DNA of 64,000 bases. Source: a virus. Lineage: Duplodnaviria; Caudoviricetes. Positions 5,195 to 57,159 of this stretch are shown here, in pieces (position 1 is the stretch's first letter; each line of letters opens with the position of its first letter). The DNA lies in IMG/VR virus record IMGVR_UViG_3300037067_012588. The stretch is one strand, 5' to 3'. The position numbers and the translations under genes were made by a program. Below the pieces are notes generated by a model, which saw nothing but the letters and a program-made list of their open reading frames with translations, searched no databases and was not told the origin of the DNA.

Positions 5195-5689
5195 TCACCC
5201 CCGAACATTTCCCAACAAAAAATTTGCACTTCGGATGATTGAGTTCATCTTGTCGTTTTCGCCTCTATCCCAACACTCAACAAGAGAAAAAAGCATATAC
5301 CTGAGCTTGTGAGCAGAAGCGTACAGACGTGCCTTTGTGCCATTTGTGACACCATCGGCAACAACCTTGGACTCTTCATCAGAGATAGAAAAGGTCTTGT
5401 CTGTTTCGCTGAAATGCACACTGTATTTATTCTCAACACCAGTGTCTTTCTTGATGGATTCTTGAACCCTTACAACATCTTCATCGCTGAGCGGAATGAT
5501 GCTTGCATTCATGCCCAAAACAACAACCCGAAACAAACTCCAAGCCCTCGACTCACAAGGGAACAACGCAACTGGAAAACCCAAAGCGATGCTGGCTTGA
5601 TTCGAAAGATATGCCGTCCAATAGCAATCGTTCAAATACCCACCAAAACGAGACAATTGTTCGATTTCGTCATGGATTGTTTTGTTCAT
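5195..5689 (-). CDS. hypothetical protein
   Basis: ORF in gene chain. Confidence 0.7.
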   Translation of the reverse strand: MNKTIHDEIEQLSRFGGYLNDCYWTAYLSNQASIALGFPVALFPCESRAWSLFRVVVLGMNASIIPLSDEDVVRVQESIKKDTGVENKYSVHFSETDKTFSISDEESKVVADGVTNGTKARLYASAHKLRYMLFSLVECWDRGENDKMNSIIRSANFLLGNVRG

Positions 5690-5699
5690 GATGCCCCCA

Positions 5700-6269
5700 T
5701 TATCGGTTATAAGCCGCACTCAGCGCAGCACGCACTTTGTCAAGGTTCGTCCCATCATACCGCACAACGTTCTTGTGTTTGAAATCCTCATTGTAATCAT
5801 GAGCTGGCATAATCACCACGCCACGAGGACGATACTCCAACCAGCGGGTAATGTATTCGGGATAATCATCGACAAGGACTCGCCCGTAATGAAGCCCCTT
5901 GTCCCTTGTGATGCAAACCTCGATATCTGGCAGGTGCTTGTCACACCACTTGAGCTTGTGCGACCACGCCTCAGCGTTGTTCCGTGGACCCTGAGTGAGA
6001 ATGACAATGCGGAAGTTGAGGTTTTTGGCTTCGCCAAGAATGTCCCAGCCGAGCTGAAAACGATCAAGATTCTCCCACCACGAGCCTGCATTCTTTATCA
6101 GCTTCGCACGCTCCTTGATATAGGACGGAAGATCAGCTCGATAGATAGAACCAAGCTTTGGTTCTTCAGGAGACTTCAACTTTCCAAGGTCACGAACAAG
6201 TGCTCCTTCATAATCAGCAAGCGTCCCATCCATATCGAAATAAGCAACAGGCTTCTTTTCAGGATTCAT
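5700..6269 (-). CDS. HAD 5'(3')-deoxyribonucleotidase (NT5C-like)
   Basis: YFDMDGTLADY motif I, K.KWC, LVDD motif IV. Confidence 0.85.
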   Translation of the reverse strand: MNPEKKPVAYFDMDGTLADYEGALVRDLGKLKSPEEPKLGSIYRADLPSYIKERAKLIKNAGSWWENLDRFQLGWDILGEAKNLNFRIVILTQGPRNNAEAWSHKLKWCDKHLPDIEVCITRDKGLHYGRVLVDDYPEYITRWLEYRPRGVVIMPAHDYNEDFKHKNVVRYDGTNLDKVRAALSAAYNR

Positions 6270-8130: not shown

Positions 8131-8161
8131 GGTTGTTCTCCTATTTACAGGTTCTTTATTT

Positions 8162-8203
8162 CACAGAAGAACATCGTCCAGAGAAGAAAATTCTGGAAAG
8201 AAA
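8162..8203 (-). promoter_or_regulatory. GGACGAT promoter-like repeat, copy 2
   Basis: close match to copy 1. Confidence 0.7.
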
Positions 8204-8210
8204 TCTGACT

Positions 8211-8567
8211 TTATTCGTCATCCACTACGAGGAACATCCCAAAGCGCACAACAAGGTCGCCGTCCTTCACGTTCGCTGAATGAAAGGCTACCCTCACATC
8301 ACCAGCCTCAGCATTCCGCAAGCCCTCCAAAAGCCCCCAAAGCTGCTCAAACAAGGAAGTCATCGAACCACCATGAATAGTCAGGTCAATCAGCGGAGCA
8401 ACAAACTTTTCGTCAACAACCTCGCCAAAAGCAAAACCCTCAAACGGTAAACCAACATGGAAAACATGCTTGCCCTTAAGGTCGTAAACTGGAAGCTTGC
8501 CATTCAACTCATCAACCTCACAACCATGCTCAGTAAACCAATTACAGACATCGCTCGTAATACTCAT
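8211..8567 (-). CDS. hypothetical protein
   Basis: ORF in gene chain. Confidence 0.7.
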   Translation of the reverse strand: MSITSDVCNWFTEHGCEVDELNGKLPVYDLKGKHVFHVGLPFEGFAFGEVVDEKFVAPLIDLTIHGGSMTSLFEQLWGLLEGLRNAEAGDVRVAFHSANVKDGDLVVRFGMFLVVDDE

Positions 8568-51747: not shown

Positions 51748-53142
51748 TCAAAGACGAGCGTTATGACGAACCTGATCGAAGTTATAACATGTGACGATTT
51801 TTCCGTCTTCAAACACGGTAACAAGATCATCCTTACGACCGTTCAACTCGCTTGCCAATATGGTCTTATAAACACCATCCTCTTTTACAAGAGCCATACG
51901 ACCCTTCTTGCTTGTCTTCGTCTTGTCAACAGGGTCCTTGAAAATGTCATACCACTTCCCATCACGGCACTGTGCGCAGCTTTTGAACGCAAACCGTTGA
52001 GTGTCACGGTTCACCTTCTGGAGGAGTCCGCCGCCCATGCCGAAGCAAGCAATATTTTCAATACTCCATCCAGCGTTTTTCATCGCAAACATGATATCAT
52101 AAATCATGTCGAAATTCAAACCATCGCCCCACAAGAGACGAATCTTCGGATTCAAAGTTTTGAATCCCTTACTGTTAACGATGAATCCGAACTTTGCCCC
52201 AAGAATATCAAGACACCTCAATACCGTGCTGACGGGGTCTCCGCTATCAGGGCGAACCACAAACACGCCATCACGAGCAAGAATTTCTTCACGCAACACG
52301 CCGCCAATAATATTCTCGCAATAATTGAAGATGTCATAGCTATCTCCAACATCGCTCAAGATACCCCTCGGGAACTTCTTGAGAAGCTGACGGACAATAT
52401 CAACCTCACCATCCTTGCCAAGAGCCGTTTTTACGCTGTGTTCGCTCGCAGGTACACTGAACCCGCAAACGTCTGCCCCGTAATAATACTCAGCATACTC
52501 AATTCCACGAATGGTATCTGTTCCGTTGAAGTTAATCAGGTGAGCCATGCCGCCCAATCCCGCACTCTCAACACTGCTGACGCCACGATACCCGAAATCA
52601 TGAAGCATCCACGGCAAACCAGCGTCACTGTCAGCCGTCTCATGAAGGAATCGCTGGATTTGTTCCTTGACCTTGCGACTCAACGTTGCGACCGTGCTTG
52701 TATACCAAACGTGTGTGAGAATGGTTTCGAGATAATTCGTCAACGGAGCACACTTCGGATCGGTATTCACAACTGTCATCAGGATGTTGCTGTTTGGAAC
52801 GACTGTCCCTTCAGGAACCGCACGAATACGAACTGGCAAACAACCATCGTGATTCTTCAGAATGTGCTCCCACATGTCCCGATTGAACATCGTATCATCG
52901 CCGTTGAAATACTTCTTATAGAACTCGGCAGCATGCTCAATCTTTCCACGGGTAACAACCTGACCCACGAAGTATTGCGTGAGAATCGGCTGCAATCCAG
53001 CAAAGACAGTATAGCTGTATTTCGCACCATTCCTTGCCTCGAAATAGCTTTCAAGGTATTCTGTGCCCTCTGGAAGCATCTTCCAGTGGCCGGGCTTGTA
53101 ACCATCGGTTCCCAAAATCACATTGAACGGTGGAATAATCAT
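51748..53142 (-). CDS. nadV: nicotinamide phosphoribosyltransferase
   Basis: TDGYK..H, LHDFGYRG, PASEHS, VRPDSGDP, FGMGGGLLQK. Confidence 0.95.
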   Translation of the reverse strand: MIIPPFNVILGTDGYKPGHWKMLPEGTEYLESYFEARNGAKYSYTVFAGLQPILTQYFVGQVVTRGKIEHAAEFYKKYFNGDDTMFNRDMWEHILKNHDGCLPVRIRAVPEGTVVPNSNILMTVVNTDPKCAPLTNYLETILTHVWYTSTVATLSRKVKEQIQRFLHETADSDAGLPWMLHDFGYRGVSSVESAGLGGMAHLINFNGTDTIRGIEYAEYYYGADVCGFSVPASEHSVKTALGKDGEVDIVRQLLKKFPRGILSDVGDSYDIFNYCENIIGGVLREEILARDGVFVVRPDSGDPVSTVLRCLDILGAKFGFIVNSKGFKTLNPKIRLLWGDGLNFDMIYDIMFAMKNAGWSIENIACFGMGGGLLQKVNRDTQRFAFKSCAQCRDGKWYDIFKDPVDKTKTSKKGRMALVKEDGVYKTILASELNGRKDDLVTVFEDGKIVTCYNFDQVRHNARL

Positions 53143-53179
53143 TGTGTTCTCCTTTGGGGGTAACTTTTAACCCCCTTTG

Positions 53180-54001
53180 TCACTTCCATCCAAGCTTCGA
53201 ACGAACGAGTCCATACTCGTCTTCGTCTCCACGATACATCATCACACATTTTCCAGAAAGCGAAATTGTCAAAACATCTGGATCAAGAACCTCTTCATAT
53301 CCATCGTAACATAACTGAAACGATTGCCTGCTTTCGGCATCCAAACTCACATTTATCTCGTCGTCCTTCGACAACACAATCGGTCTGTTCGACAACTGAT
53401 GCGGACAAATAGGAACCAAAACCATGCCTTGAACATTTGGCGACATAATCGGTCCACCTGCCGACAAGGCATATGCTGTTGAACCTGTTGGCGTACTGAT
53501 TATAACGCCATCACCAGCAATCGTGGAAAGATGTTTTCCGTTTATCCCGACGACAACCTTCACGATGTTTCCTACTCGCTTCGGGGCACAAATGAACTCG
53601 TTCAGAGCGTAAAACTCACGAGTCTTGAAGCCAATGACAGTTTCAACGCACTTCAATAGCCAACGTTTTTGGAACTTTGCCTTACCTGACAGTATCGAAT
53701 GAAAGGCTTCGTAAAACCCTTCCTTGCTTGTCCCAGTCATATAACCAAGGTGTCCAACGTTGACATTCAACATCTTGTGCTGACGTCGATACCCAAGCCT
53801 ATGAACCGTATTGATTACCGTCCCGTCACCGCCAAGAACTATGACAAAGTCTTCATCATAGTTTCCATCTTTGGCAAGAACATCTTGCTTCGAAACAGAA
53901 ACTCTGCATTCGCACTTGCAAGTATCACAGAACGATTTAACAACCTCTGCGAACTGCAAAGCCTCTGGTTTGTTTTCGTTGGCGACGACAAGTATCTTCA
54001 C
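53180..54001 (-). CDS. nadK: NAD kinase
   Basis: GGDGT, G.LGYM, LNE, DG..ISTPTGSTAYALSAGG. Confidence 0.95.
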   Translation of the reverse strand: MKILVVANENKPEALQFAEVVKSFCDTCKCECRVSVSKQDVLAKDGNYDEDFVIVLGGDGTVINTVHRLGYRRQHKMLNVNVGHLGYMTGTSKEGFYEAFHSILSGKAKFQKRWLLKCVETVIGFKTREFYALNEFICAPKRVGNIVKVVVGINGKHLSTIAGDGVIISTPTGSTAYALSAGGPIMSPNVQGMVLVPICPHQLSNRPIVLSKDDEINVSLDAESRQSFQLCYDGYEEVLDPDVLTISLSGKCVMMYRGDEDEYGLVRSKLGWK

Positions 54002-54445
54002 TCAGATTCTCCCGAACTTGCGCTTCAAGATTTCCAATGCACGGTCAAGACTCGGGAAATGAGGATTCGGAATCTCTCCCCAAATGTCCACCCATTGCCA
54101 TCCTTCGCACTTATCAGGCTCAGTATTGACAGGCTCAACCTCTTCTGCACAACGAAAAACGACAAACGACGTAATGTAATGCTTCCCTGACTCTGGAAAC
54201 AACTCCGTCTCTGTCGTCAAAATTTCAGTGTCGTCAATGCTTGTATTACAAACATATTCAACATCAATACCTGTTTCCTCTTTCACCTCTCTTGCAGCCG
54301 CAACGCCAATCGTTTCCCACTTGTCAATGTGACCGCCTGGCATACCATACCATCCATCACCAACGCCAGTCCCAATCCTCTTGCCAAGGAGAAACTTGTT
54401 GCCATTCATGACGAACGCAGCAACACCAACACTGATGTCGCTCAT
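54002..54445 (-). CDS. Nudix hydrolase (MutT/NUDT15-like)
   Basis: PGGH....ET....A.REVKEETG, EPDKCEGW. Confidence 0.9.
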   Translation of the reverse strand: MSDISVGVAAFVMNGNKFLLGKRIGTGVGDGWYGMPGGHIDKWETIGVAAAREVKEETGIDVEYVCNTSIDDTEILTTETELFPESGKHYITSFVVFRCAEEVEPVNTEPDKCEGWQWVDIWGEIPNPHFPSLDRALEILKRKFGRI

Positions 54446-54579
54446 GTGTTCACCAATTCACTTTCGACAATGATGCTGAGCTGACCACACGCCGCACCAG
54501 CAGCAATCTCAGCCTGTGTTGCAACCGCAACAGCAAAATCATACCCAGCCGCTTCCAATTGCTTTTTAATGTCTTCCAT
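54442..54579 (-). CDS. 45-aa peptide matching the RlmN C-terminal segment (AACGQL)
   Basis: hand-translated MEDIKKQLEAAGYDFAVAVATQAEIAAGAACGQLSIIVESELVNT; AAGGAG RBS; ATGA overlap. Confidence 0.75.
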   Translation of the reverse strand: MEDIKKQLEAAGYDFAVAVATQAEIAAGAACGQLSIIVESELVNT

Positions 54580-54593
54580 GATACGTCTCCTTC

Positions 54594-55379
54594 TCAGACC
54601 AAATTGACTGCTTCAATAACACCCAAACCAAGACCATTTGCTTCCGACACATCGTTCGGATTGATGGGCGATAATTTGATGAAAAAATACTTTGGGTCGA
54701 AATACTTCTTCAACCTCTCGATATCAAAATCCTTTTCATCGACAAGGGTCAGATTCACCGTTGTCTTTAGATTGCTTTGCGTCCGAATCTGACCAAGCTC
54801 CTCAATACTCATTTTACCATCCATCGGAATCAATTCGTCACGCCTTTTTTCGTCCAAACTGTGCAACGAAACTTGAAGTGTGATATTGTCTTTGACCCAC
54901 GAGAAATCGGAACCCTTAATGCCGATTGTCGAAACATAATGATGCACACAACCAGGAAACAACTTGTCGATACGAGTGATTGCAAGACGGACATCCTCTA
55001 GGTTCAGAAAAGGCTCACCCATTCGGGTATAGTTTATCTTAAACTCCTTGGCGTCTTGAACTCGATACTCCGAGTTTTGCTTAATCACGAAAGCAACCTG
55101 CGAAATAATTTCGTTCGCAGTAAGATTGCGACACTTTGAAAGCGATCCAGTTGCGCAAAACTTGCATCCGACAGGACATCCGCTCATAGTCGACACGCCA
55201 ACCATAAACCTTTCCGACCTGCTTCCAAGATCAACATCTTTCATTTTGTTAGCTCTACCTACGCAGAACTTGGTATAATACGGCAAAAAAGTATCCGTCA
55301 CCTCAATCGGAAAGCCATCATTTGTCTTGATAGCGTATACCGTTCCGTTTTTGAATGTTTTGCTTCGAACGACTTGCAT
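54594..55379 (-). CDS. RlmN/Cfr-like radical SAM protein (C-terminal segment split off)
   Basis: CPVGCKFC, RNLT..EI..QV, MGEP, SLHS...R.ELIP, INPN. Confidence 0.85.
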   Translation of the reverse strand: MQVVRSKTFKNGTVYAIKTNDGFPIEVTDTFLPYYTKFCVGRANKMKDVDLGSRSERFMVGVSTMSGCPVGCKFCATGSLSKCRNLTANEIISQVAFVIKQNSEYRVQDAKEFKINYTRMGEPFLNLEDVRLAITRIDKLFPGCVHHYVSTIGIKGSDFSWVKDNITLQVSLHSLDEKRRDELIPMDGKMSIEELGQIRTQSNLKTTVNLTLVDEKDFDIERLKKYFDPKYFFIKLSPINPNDVSEANGLGLGVIEAVNLV

Positions 55380-55381
55380 CT

Positions 55382-55858
55382 TTACGCTCCATGATTCCTG
55401 TTTGTAACGAAGTCGATATATTTCCGACTTATGACAAAGTCGATGACAGTGCGAACAAGGACATCGTAAACGGGAGGATTGACATCTTCCATATCAAACC
55501 CAACCATGTCATACCAGCCCCACCCCTCACACTTGTTCGGCTCCATGTTCTTTGGCTCATCATCTCCCTGATAGTGAGCGAAAAGATAGATGGTTGCATA
55601 TTGAAGATTCTCAACAGGAAAAAACTCATCCCGTGCCGTCAGAATGACAGCGGACTCAACATCAAGCCCTGTCTCTTCCTTGACCTCACGGATAGCACAA
55701 TCAACCAGCGTCTCACCCTTCTCAAGGTGTCCACCCGGAAGCGAATACAAACCAGCCCCATGCGAACCCTTGCGCTTGCCGAGCAAGAAACGACGGCGAT
55801 TCTTGTTAAACACAAATACGTCGACCCCAACCATCGGCATGTCGGTTCTCTTTTTCAT
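55382..55858 (-). CDS. Nudix hydrolase (MutT/NUDT15-like)
   Basis: PGGHLEKGETLVDCAIREVKEETGL, EPNKCEGW. Confidence 0.9.
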   Translation of the reverse strand: MKKRTDMPMVGVDVFVFNKNRRRFLLGKRKGSHGAGLYSLPGGHLEKGETLVDCAIREVKEETGLDVESAVILTARDEFFPVENLQYATIYLFAHYQGDDEPKNMEPNKCEGWGWYDMVGFDMEDVNPPVYDVLVRTVIDFVISRKYIDFVTNRNHGA

Positions 55859-56187: not shown

Positions 56188-57159
56188 TCACTTTTCCTTT
56201 GGAGGATACGGAATAACCTGCCCGTCTGTCCAACCAGTCGCCTTCTCTTCCCGCTTGGCAAAGCGAAGTTTGGACTTGGCGCACAATATCTTCAACAGCG
56301 GACGGTGTTCGGCAACCAAATCACTCTCGTGAATATCAGCCGCCTCAAACCAGCGCAGCTCGAAAATGTCATCATCGGGTGTCGGGATACCAAACGTGTG
56401 CTCAGCCTCGAACAAACACGTCATAATCTTGTCCATCTCCCGACGATACCGCCAATCATCAACAATATGGCTGCCAAGAAATTGCGGCTCGCTGATTTCG
56501 ATATGAGCTTCTTCCTGAACCTCACGACGTGCCGAGACCTCCAGCGTCTCGCACTGGACGAACCCACCAATGAATCGGAAAAGGGTTTCCTCTTTCTTCC
56601 GAGCCATCAGAAGCCTCTTGTGGTCTGTATCCCAGATTGCGACATCAATCGTCGGGATACTGCGAGGGTATTGATTGTATGCCGCCCAGATTACACCCGC
56701 ACGAAACAACGGGTCAGCCTTGACTTCGGTGCTGATTTTGGTACGAATCTCAGCACCACTGATATAGGATTCCTGTTCAAGTTCGCATGTCGAATACCGC
56801 CCCGTATACCCATCAATGCACGATTCCCGACCGCCATAAATGACGACCGTTTTGCCGGGTCCAACAAGGTCACTGATTTGGCTGTCGAGACTCTTGCTCC
56901 AAACTTCATCACGGGCAACATCCTTGATATAGAGGACATTGGCCGTGGGAAACTGGTCAAGAATCATTTGCTTGCGACTCTCGAAGTCGAGAGGGTTGTT
57001 TCGGGTAACACGGCACGGGGAAAGCCCAAGAAAAATGAGAACCTTGCTATGGGCTTTGACAACAGAACCGATGAGGTTGAGGTGAGCTTCGTGAAGGTCG
57101 TCGACTTGGAACCTGCCGACTAAAACACCAACATCTGCCTTGGGCAGTTTTGGTTGCAT
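56188..57159 (-). CDS. nadM: bifunctional NMN adenylyltransferase / Nudix (NadM-Nudix)
   Basis: GRFQ...LHEAH, NPL.F..R..MI, ISG.EIR, Nudix GGF...RE..EE. Confidence 0.9.
   Translation of the reverse strand: MQPKLPKADVGVLVGRFQVDDLHEAHLNLIGSVVKAHSKVLIFLGLSPCRVTRNNPLDFESRKQMILDQFPTANVLYIKDVARDEVWSKSLDSQISDLVGPGKTVVIYGGRESCIDGYTGRYSTCELEQESYISGAEIRTKISTEVKADPLFRAGVIWAAYNQYPRSIPTIDVAIWDTDHKRLLMARKKEETLFRFIGGFVQCETLEVSARREVQEEAHIEISEPQFLGSHIVDDWRYRREMDKIMTCLFEAEHTFGIPTPDDDIFELRWFEAADIHESDLVAEHRPLLKILCAKSKLRFAKREEKATGWTDGQVIPYPPKEK

Follow-up and report, generated by a model that had tools for sequence, protein, structure and literature searches.

A 64,000-nucleotide (nt) stretch of DNA from a giant groundwater phage (Duplodnaviria; Caudoviricetes; IMG/VR record IMGVR_UViG_3300037067_012588), hereafter the window, carries two neighboring genes on its minus strand that encode the two parts of an RlmN-like radical S-adenosylmethionine (SAM) protein. 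The larger encodes an RlmN/Cfr-like core of 261 residues (54594..55379, minus strand), identified by open reading frame (ORF) calling together with profile and fold matches. The smaller encodes a peptide of 45 residues (54442..54579, minus strand) composed of a helix, a beta strand (YDFAV), and a GAACGQL loop carrying Cys31. This peptide is the counterpart of the C-terminal segment that holds C355 in RlmN. With moderate confidence, we read the two genes as specifying one heterodimeric radical SAM enzyme of the RlmN/Cfr type (class A-like), in which the small subunit supplies the methyl-carrier cysteine loop. Literature searches for an RlmN-like enzyme that is split or phage-encoded returned no paper.

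The two ORFs occupy different frames, with their starts 800 nt apart and 14 nt separating them. The core ends in a TGA stop (54594-54596, minus strand) just upstream of a Shine-Dalgarno sequence, AAGGAG (54587..54592, minus strand), which stands 7 nt before the peptide ATG (54577-54579). At the other end, the peptide stop codon (TGA) and the start codon (ATG) of the Nudix gene downstream overlap as ATGA (54442..54445, minus strand), consistent with translational coupling. The original prediction, drawn from the DNA letters, held that the 261-residue enzyme stops short of the RlmN C-terminal segment and that this segment is a separate ORF in another frame, with AAGGAG ahead of it and an ATGA overlap behind. 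Both the ORFs and the junction sequence confirmed this arrangement. An indel error, which would re-fuse the two ORFs, was checked at the same place. The junction was identical and free of indels in contigs of a groundwater run and of an independent landfill metagenome, the latter spanning 54300-54649 with zero differences and zero gaps.

The core retains the catalytic framework of its family. Its cluster motif, CxxxCxxC, is formed by C68, C72, and C75, and the RlmN-family invariants S63, Q94, GEP (121-123), N126, S171, H173, and R180 are all kept. The best NCBIfam match was RlmN (TIGR00048, E = 1.9e-23); it scored only 83 bits, with the cutoff at 290, and covered model positions 92-244 of 355. 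Cfr models ranked after it, with 56-59 bits against cutoffs of 468-550. Pfam gave a weak Radical_SAM match and nothing further; with this as the sole Pfam match and the TIGR00048 alignment beginning only at model position 92, the RlmN N-terminal accessory domain is missing. The PHROGs match was to a family of unknown function. One source labels two homologues (P0035 and P0073) "ribulose bisphosphate carboxylase small subunit", in appearance an annotation error.

Comparison with solved structures pointed to the same family. In phmmer searches of PDB sequences, the core aligned to RlmN (6fz6, 4pl1, 5hr6, 3rf9) and to Cfr (9p0p). An AlphaFold2 model of the core (predicted local distance difference test, pLDDT, 91) was searched with Foldseek, and chains of RlmN or Cfr made up the whole of the top 11 PDB matches (E = 2e-11 to 2e-6, template modeling score ~0.66). 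RlmN chains 6fz6, 4pl1, 3rf9, and 5hr6 were the best of these (E = 2e-11 to 1e-8), and Cfr 9p0p was also among them. The phmmer alignments placed Gly61 at the position of C118, the second catalytic cysteine of RlmN, with vGvstmsgC of the core lying over vCvscqvgC of 6fz6 and over the C118A chain 4pl1. A Gly in place of this Cys had been proposed from the window alone and is thus borne out by alignment to solved RlmN.

Using hhalign, we compared a profile of 40 peptide homologues with one built from 24 fused RlmN-like proteins. The peptide profile matched the final 46 columns of the latter with a probability of 93.6% (E = 2e-7), and the alignment took in the helix, the strand, and CGQL. Twelve residues were invariant among the 40 aligned peptides (L8, G12, A18, A20, T21, E24, A29, A30, C31, G32, Q33, and L34), a pattern that suggests purifying selection on the peptide.

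Modelling of the core-peptide complex, a check proposed in the original prediction, was carried out with the [4Fe-4S] cluster and SAM, alongside three controls. The interaction prediction score from aligned errors (ipSAE) was 0.83, compared with 0.43 for the best of the three controls. In a benchmark, the mark applied to this score was attained by 58 of 80 solved complexes and by 2 of 110 mismatched pairs. Separate runs shared at least 50% of contacts, with partner pLDDT of 61-78. In the model, the peptide pairs through residues 13-17 with the core strand at 232-236, and the peptide loop 23-41 contacts core residues 74-80 (by the cluster motif), 118-120 (by GEP), and 28-32 (the family-specific TDTFLP). 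As the pair is a split of a solved fold, this pass may reflect likeness to RlmN structures; the model supports the subunit picture, short of proving binding. Together, profile comparison, fold search, and complex model indicate that the peptide is probably the strand and Cys loop missing from the core. In Pectobacterium phage Arno162 (L007:4001-4876) and in two further homologues (P0280 and P0288), TDTFLP reads TATCLP, which places a Cys in the segment modelled against the Cys loop.

The split is widely conserved. Homologue searches gave 2245 core clusters, the best 120 of which were 255-287 residues long, and 161 peptide clusters of 39-67 residues. We collected 165 loci. Of these, 95 came from searches with the core, in GenBank phage records, viral contigs, and other assemblies, and another 70, all viral contigs, from searches with the peptide. 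The peptide gene was present in all 95 core-found loci. The core was likewise present in all 70 peptide-found loci, with the peptide always on the same strand and downstream of it. Both genes lay on one strand in all 165 loci, and every intact core had Gly at the C118 position. Whether homologues keep the split and the Gly had been posed as a check on the original prediction, and both are kept, with at least one lineage showing a natural fusion. The Cys-bearing C-terminal module is therefore truly a separate, conserved, and co-directional gene.

Spacing of the two genes varied. Among 42 lineages defined at 85% identity, the genes were adjacent in 24, more than 100 nt apart in 17, and fused, with the peptide upstream, in 1. 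The widest gap was 5.6 kb. The split phage lineage as a whole includes abundant gut crAss-like phages and cultured phages of Bacteroides, Moorella, Pectobacterium, and Yersinia. Cultured phages with the pair include the crAss-like Kehishuvirus 'tikkala' of Bacteroides (core WEU69814, peptide WEU69813), Moorella phage MTATph1, and Pectobacterium phage Arno162, whose core (orf59) and peptide (orf56) lie three genes apart. With cultured hosts, the function of the pair is directly testable. The peptide motif itself was rarely altered. Two loci read AACSQL, and in one (L003, peptide 8138-8248) an in-frame loss of CGQL leaves no carrier Cys beside a core that looks intact, the sole such case among the 165 loci.

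Two natural fusions join the pieces in circularly permuted order. In P0248 (315 residues, two samples), the peptide module is fused to the N-terminus of the core. In P0261 (695 residues; L173:67-2154, on one 25-kb contig), the peptide module (GAACGNL) and the RlmN-like core are followed by a C-terminal second radical SAM domain. Such fusions make a fixed 1:1 subunit of the core, and not a freely spent tag, the more likely role of the peptide.

To place these architectures, the residue at the C118 position was surveyed in representatives clustered at 50% identity, and a quick maximum-likelihood tree was built, with support from the Shimodaira-Hasegawa-like approximate likelihood ratio test only. 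The residue tracked architecture: proteins with Gly had no Cys tail, and those with Cys had a fused CGQL tail. In a third set, I, N, V, M, T, or A stood at this position together with a fused GSNCGQ tail. In the tree, the classical C118 + CGQL proteins (support 98), the GSNCGQ proteins (100), and the lineage holding the split phage clade (97) formed separate groups. This last group held three clades: that of the split phage proteins; a small one of fused proteins that have Thr in place of C118 and an AACGQA tail (P0292, P0332); and the 'KIGVS' clade, whose members keep the helix and strand and end before the Cys loop. P0292 and P0332 are the nearest fused relatives of the split proteins. As they too are without C118, loss of this Cys is uncoupled from the split; judging by the tree, it preceded the split and is widespread in RlmN-like proteins yet to be characterised.

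Members of the other clades showed features of their own. Within the 'KIGVS' clade, P0300, P0309, and seven relatives have Gly at the C118 position and no Cys loop, and so carry neither Cys. The contigs of P0300 and P0309 are short, and no peptide gene is visible on them. One member of this clade (L098:2132-2971) lies between pyruvate kinase and greA, a context that is cellular in appearance. In the GSNCGQ/STSCGQ lineage, which is without C118, three proteins (P0304, P0355, and P0358) are fused to an isochorismatase-family domain. The isochorismatase family includes nicotinamidases.

We know of no characterised class A radical SAM methylases other than RlmN and Cfr, whose mechanism relies on two cysteines of one chain. 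The pair shares with RlmN (TIGR00048, the C2-methyl synthase of 23S rRNA A2503 and tRNA A37; PDB 3RF9/3RFA, 4PL1, 5HR6/5HR7, 6FZ6) the core fold, the CxxxCxxC motif, the S, Q, GEP, N, SLH, and R invariants, and the helix-strand-AACGQL module with its methyl-carrier Cys. It differs in having this module as a separate gene product, Gly for C118, no N-terminal domain, a score of 83 bits where the cutoff is 290, and a separate lineage in the tree; in addition, it is phage-encoded and, in the window, set among NAD-salvage genes. Its likeness to Cfr (TIGR04432, the C8-methyltransferase of 23S rRNA A2503; PDB 9P0P) lies in the class A architecture and two-SAM logic, together with sequence and fold matches. 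The differences are those from RlmN, the matches are weaker, and nothing points to a role in antibiotic resistance.

In RlmN, C355 is methylated by one SAM, and a 5'-deoxyadenosyl radical from a second SAM then generates a thiomethylene radical that adds to adenine (PMC5130265). The second conserved Cys resolves the resulting covalent RNA-protein adduct; the C118A variant forms no 2-methyladenosine (m2A) and traps the adduct (PMC5130265). By analogy, the 261-residue core would bind a [4Fe-4S] cluster and SAM, and the peptide would dock with its beta strand joining the edge of the core sheet. Docked in this way, the invariant AACGQL loop would bring Cys31 into the active site, the part that the C-terminal segment plays in cis in RlmN. 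Cys31 would be S-methylated by one SAM, the 5'-deoxyadenosyl radical from a second would convert its methyl to a thiomethylene radical, and this radical would add to an sp2 carbon of the substrate.

Later steps would have to depart from those of RlmN. Because its second Cys is a conserved Gly in the pair, the adduct would have to be resolved otherwise, for which a different acid/base group or an external thiol could serve, and completion of the reaction without the classical second Cys is our best reading. As the whole lineage is without the RlmN N-terminal domain, the target is probably not the rRNA/tRNA site of RlmN. The translational packing of the pair between two Nudix genes, inside a Nampt-Nmnat operon for NAD rebuilding in the window, points instead to a nucleotide containing adenine, or to a nucleic acid tied to the NAD/ADP-ribose conflict with host defenses. 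In this phage, we infer, a link of the substrate to NAD or nucleotide metabolism is probable. The lineage would represent either a second way to finish class A chemistry or a deliberate natural use of the trapped-adduct state otherwise seen in mutants only.

The gene neighborhood in the window is centered on NAD. Directly downstream of the peptide gene is a Nudix hydrolase of 147 residues (54002..54445, minus strand; Pfam NUDIX, 1.2e-19), followed by NAD kinase (53180..54001, minus strand; NAD_kinase_C, 1.4e-29) and nicotinamide phosphoribosyltransferase (Nampt; 51748..53142, minus strand; NAPRTase, 3.6e-48, and NAMPT_N, 3.7e-31). On the other side, a second Nudix hydrolase of 158 residues (55382..55858, minus strand; NUDIX, 9.8e-22) ends 2 nt from the core ATG, and beyond it stands a NadM-like Nmnat-Nudix gene (56188..57159, minus strand). 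The Pfam match to this last copy covers the Nudix half only; its homologue in L017 also gave a CTP_transf_like match. These Pfam matches agree with the earlier placement of the pair between two Nudix genes inside a cluster of Nampt, Nmnat, and NAD kinase. A 466-residue open frame antisense to the entire Nampt gene (51763-53163, plus strand) is most likely a shadow ORF.

Nampt (51748-53142) and Nmnat-Nudix (56188-57159), which flank the pair, are the two genes of NAD+ reconstitution pathway 2 (NARP2), a pathway reported in ~1.1% of sequenced phages (bioRxiv 10.1101/2024.02.11.579819). Across the collected loci, 9 of the 42 lineages had Nampt no more than 10 kb from the pair, upstream or downstream of it and often directly adjacent. 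The window and eight other lineages thus have the pair within or beside Nampt/Nmnat genes. In L031, Nampt follows the peptide gene despite 5.6 kb of other genes between core and peptide. Other recurrent neighbors were Nmnat-Nudix, NADAR-exonuclease, ADP-ribosylglycohydrolase, macro domain, NAD kinase, Tpt1/KptA, and nucleotidase genes. The published NARP2 differs: it comprises two enzymes without a radical SAM component, and the paper nowhere uses the word "radical" (bioRxiv 10.1101/2024.02.11.579819); the NARP3 paper makes no mention of radical SAM. The NARP2 genes around the pair are context, from which its membership of the pathway does not follow, and we regard the NAD link as suggestive. 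Placement with Nampt/Nmnat in the window and in about one-fifth of lineages raises the possibility of an unknown reaction in a NAD-centered arms race between phages and host defense.

Other radical SAM genes occurred between the two pieces in some loci. A gene of ~290 residues stood there in ~9 contigs (L004:5995-6861, L031:11721-12617, L078:8784-9668, and others), and a MoaA/viperin-like gene of ~250 residues in 4-5 contigs (L003:6112-6885, L055:8789-9574, L079:8734-9462). A small SAM-methyltransferase-like gene sometimes accompanied these intervening genes.

Several results weigh against a heterodimeric class A enzyme working on an NAD-related substrate. Turnover without C118 is an assumption, as RlmN needs C118 to form product and its C118A variant traps the adduct (PMC5130265). 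An hmmsearch of the peptide profile against PDB sequences retrieved no RlmN chain (best E ~1, to unrelated proteins), and phmmer with the single peptide gave no match in the same database. It is thus the profile-profile alignment and the complex model that carry the homology of the peptide to RlmN. NAD genes are absent near the pair in most lineages, the crAss-like, Moorella, and Pectobacterium phages among them; this is a further difference from NARP2, and the nine Nampt-linked lineages are not independent and may share ancestry. Finally, the second radical SAM gene between the pieces in ~9 contigs suggests a longer pathway, which the heterodimer model leaves unexplained.

The Gly at the C118 position also lends itself to another account, in which each peptide is used once as a cross-linker, joined through Cys-S-CH2 to RNA, DNA, a nucleotide, or a protein, with the adduct as end product. 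The original prediction had suggested that the peptide is either a diffusible methyl carrier or such a permanently ligated tag, and neither role is supported so far. Single use would be in keeping with the invariance of the Gly, the lack of any further conserved Cys in the core, and the placement of the carrier Cys on a small separate chain that is cheap to sacrifice; exactly such a trapped adduct is what RlmN C118A yields (PMC5130265). However, the fusions P0248 and P0261 would then be single-use enzymes, and fused relatives without C118 are common (P0292, P0332, and the whole GSNCGQ-tail lineage), so that C118 loss is not coupled to a free peptide. Nearly all conserved peptide residues also fall in the modelled core interface, leaving little for a function after ligation, and each locus has only one peptide gene. 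We judge a consumable tag unlikely. A reading that we hold quite unlikely makes the pair a so far undescribed accessory to phage NAD+ reconstitution: a class A-type enzyme whose substrate is a free adenine nucleotide (NAD+, ADP-ribose, or a derived immune signal) and not RNA, and whose 45-residue subunit, for want of a resolving Cys, is perhaps a single-turnover co-substrate bridged to that nucleotide through Cys-S-CH2. An ordinary RNA methyltransferase in two pieces, producing m2A or 8-methyladenosine (m8A) in tRNA or rRNA of host or phage with another group in place of C118, is also a doubtful explanation. No families are closer in sequence and fold than RlmN and Cfr, many pair-bearing phages encode tRNAs (in Kehishuvirus, a tRNA-Arg lies 3.6 kb from the pair), and Tpt1/KptA and peptidyl-tRNA hydrolase genes are near the pair in some loci. 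Yet core and peptide total just 306 residues and have no RlmN N-terminal domain, the scores are far under all RlmN/Cfr cutoffs, and the lineage is separate from the classical clade. The holoenzyme has a net charge of about -4.5, while classical relatives are mostly positive, a weak difference that is too weak to decide between nucleic-acid and small-molecule substrates.

Could the peptide instead be the substrate, a precursor or carrier like those of peptides made by the ribosome and then modified post-translationally (RiPPs), modified by the core and, in other phages, by the intervening radical SAM enzymes? A small conserved peptide gene following one to three radical SAM genes in ~9 contigs would fit, as would P0261, which unites peptide module, core, and second radical SAM domain. 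Against this, the peptide is homologous to a structural element that the core is missing, is modelled as an integral strand of the core sheet, and is nearly invariant over its full length, with no variable core region of the kind found in RiPP precursors. The window also has no second radical SAM gene, the core being the sole match in a CxxxCxxC scan of all ORFs of at least 120 residues. A RiPP-like peptide is therefore very unlikely. The split could also have been an artefact or a sign of gene decay, due to an indel error, to pseudogene formation, or to re-fusion of the ORFs by a programmed frameshift, as the 14 nt between ORFs in different frames and the L003 peptide without CGQL might suggest. 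The identical, indel-free junction in an independent sample, the preservation of the split in 165 loci with spacing from adjacent to 5.6 kb, and the strong ribosome-binding site and ATG of the peptide gene refute such an account for practical purposes. Frameshift fusion was rejected specifically: the 16 nt where a shift would be needed contain no XXXYYYZ slippery site, and spacing varies between loci. A split intein was also rejected, as all 45 residues align to the RlmN C-terminus and leave no room for intein blocks.

Mobile elements offer a possible origin for a heterodimeric enzyme of this kind. In Aeromonas phage Aeh1, nrdA is split by the homing endonuclease mobE and its product is still active (PMC3045599). 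As with Aeh1 nrdA, the pair is a large-phage enzyme gene in two separately translated pieces that would reassemble, and at least one relative (L004) has homing endonuclease genes at the split. The window ORFs include no homing endonuclease gene at the core/peptide junction. In L004 (3219-8671), GIY-YIG+NUMOD3 endonuclease genes flank the core gene on both sides, and an HNH+NUMOD3 gene follows the peptide gene. An ORF between the two pieces (5607-5747) repeats the C-terminal end of the core and resembles the scar of a homing event. In addition, P0246 (601 residues) has an intein (Hint + LAGLIDADG) right after the CxxxCxxC motif. From these sequences, the core gene is a target of both homing endonucleases and an intein. 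For the pair, the likeliest history is that homing endonucleases visited the site, that the gene came to lie in pieces there, and that this split was later fixed. Unlike that of Aeh1 nrdA, it is ancient and fixed over dozens of lineages, its small piece is only ~40 residues long and holds the catalytic residue, and two relatives have re-fused the pieces at the other end of the core.

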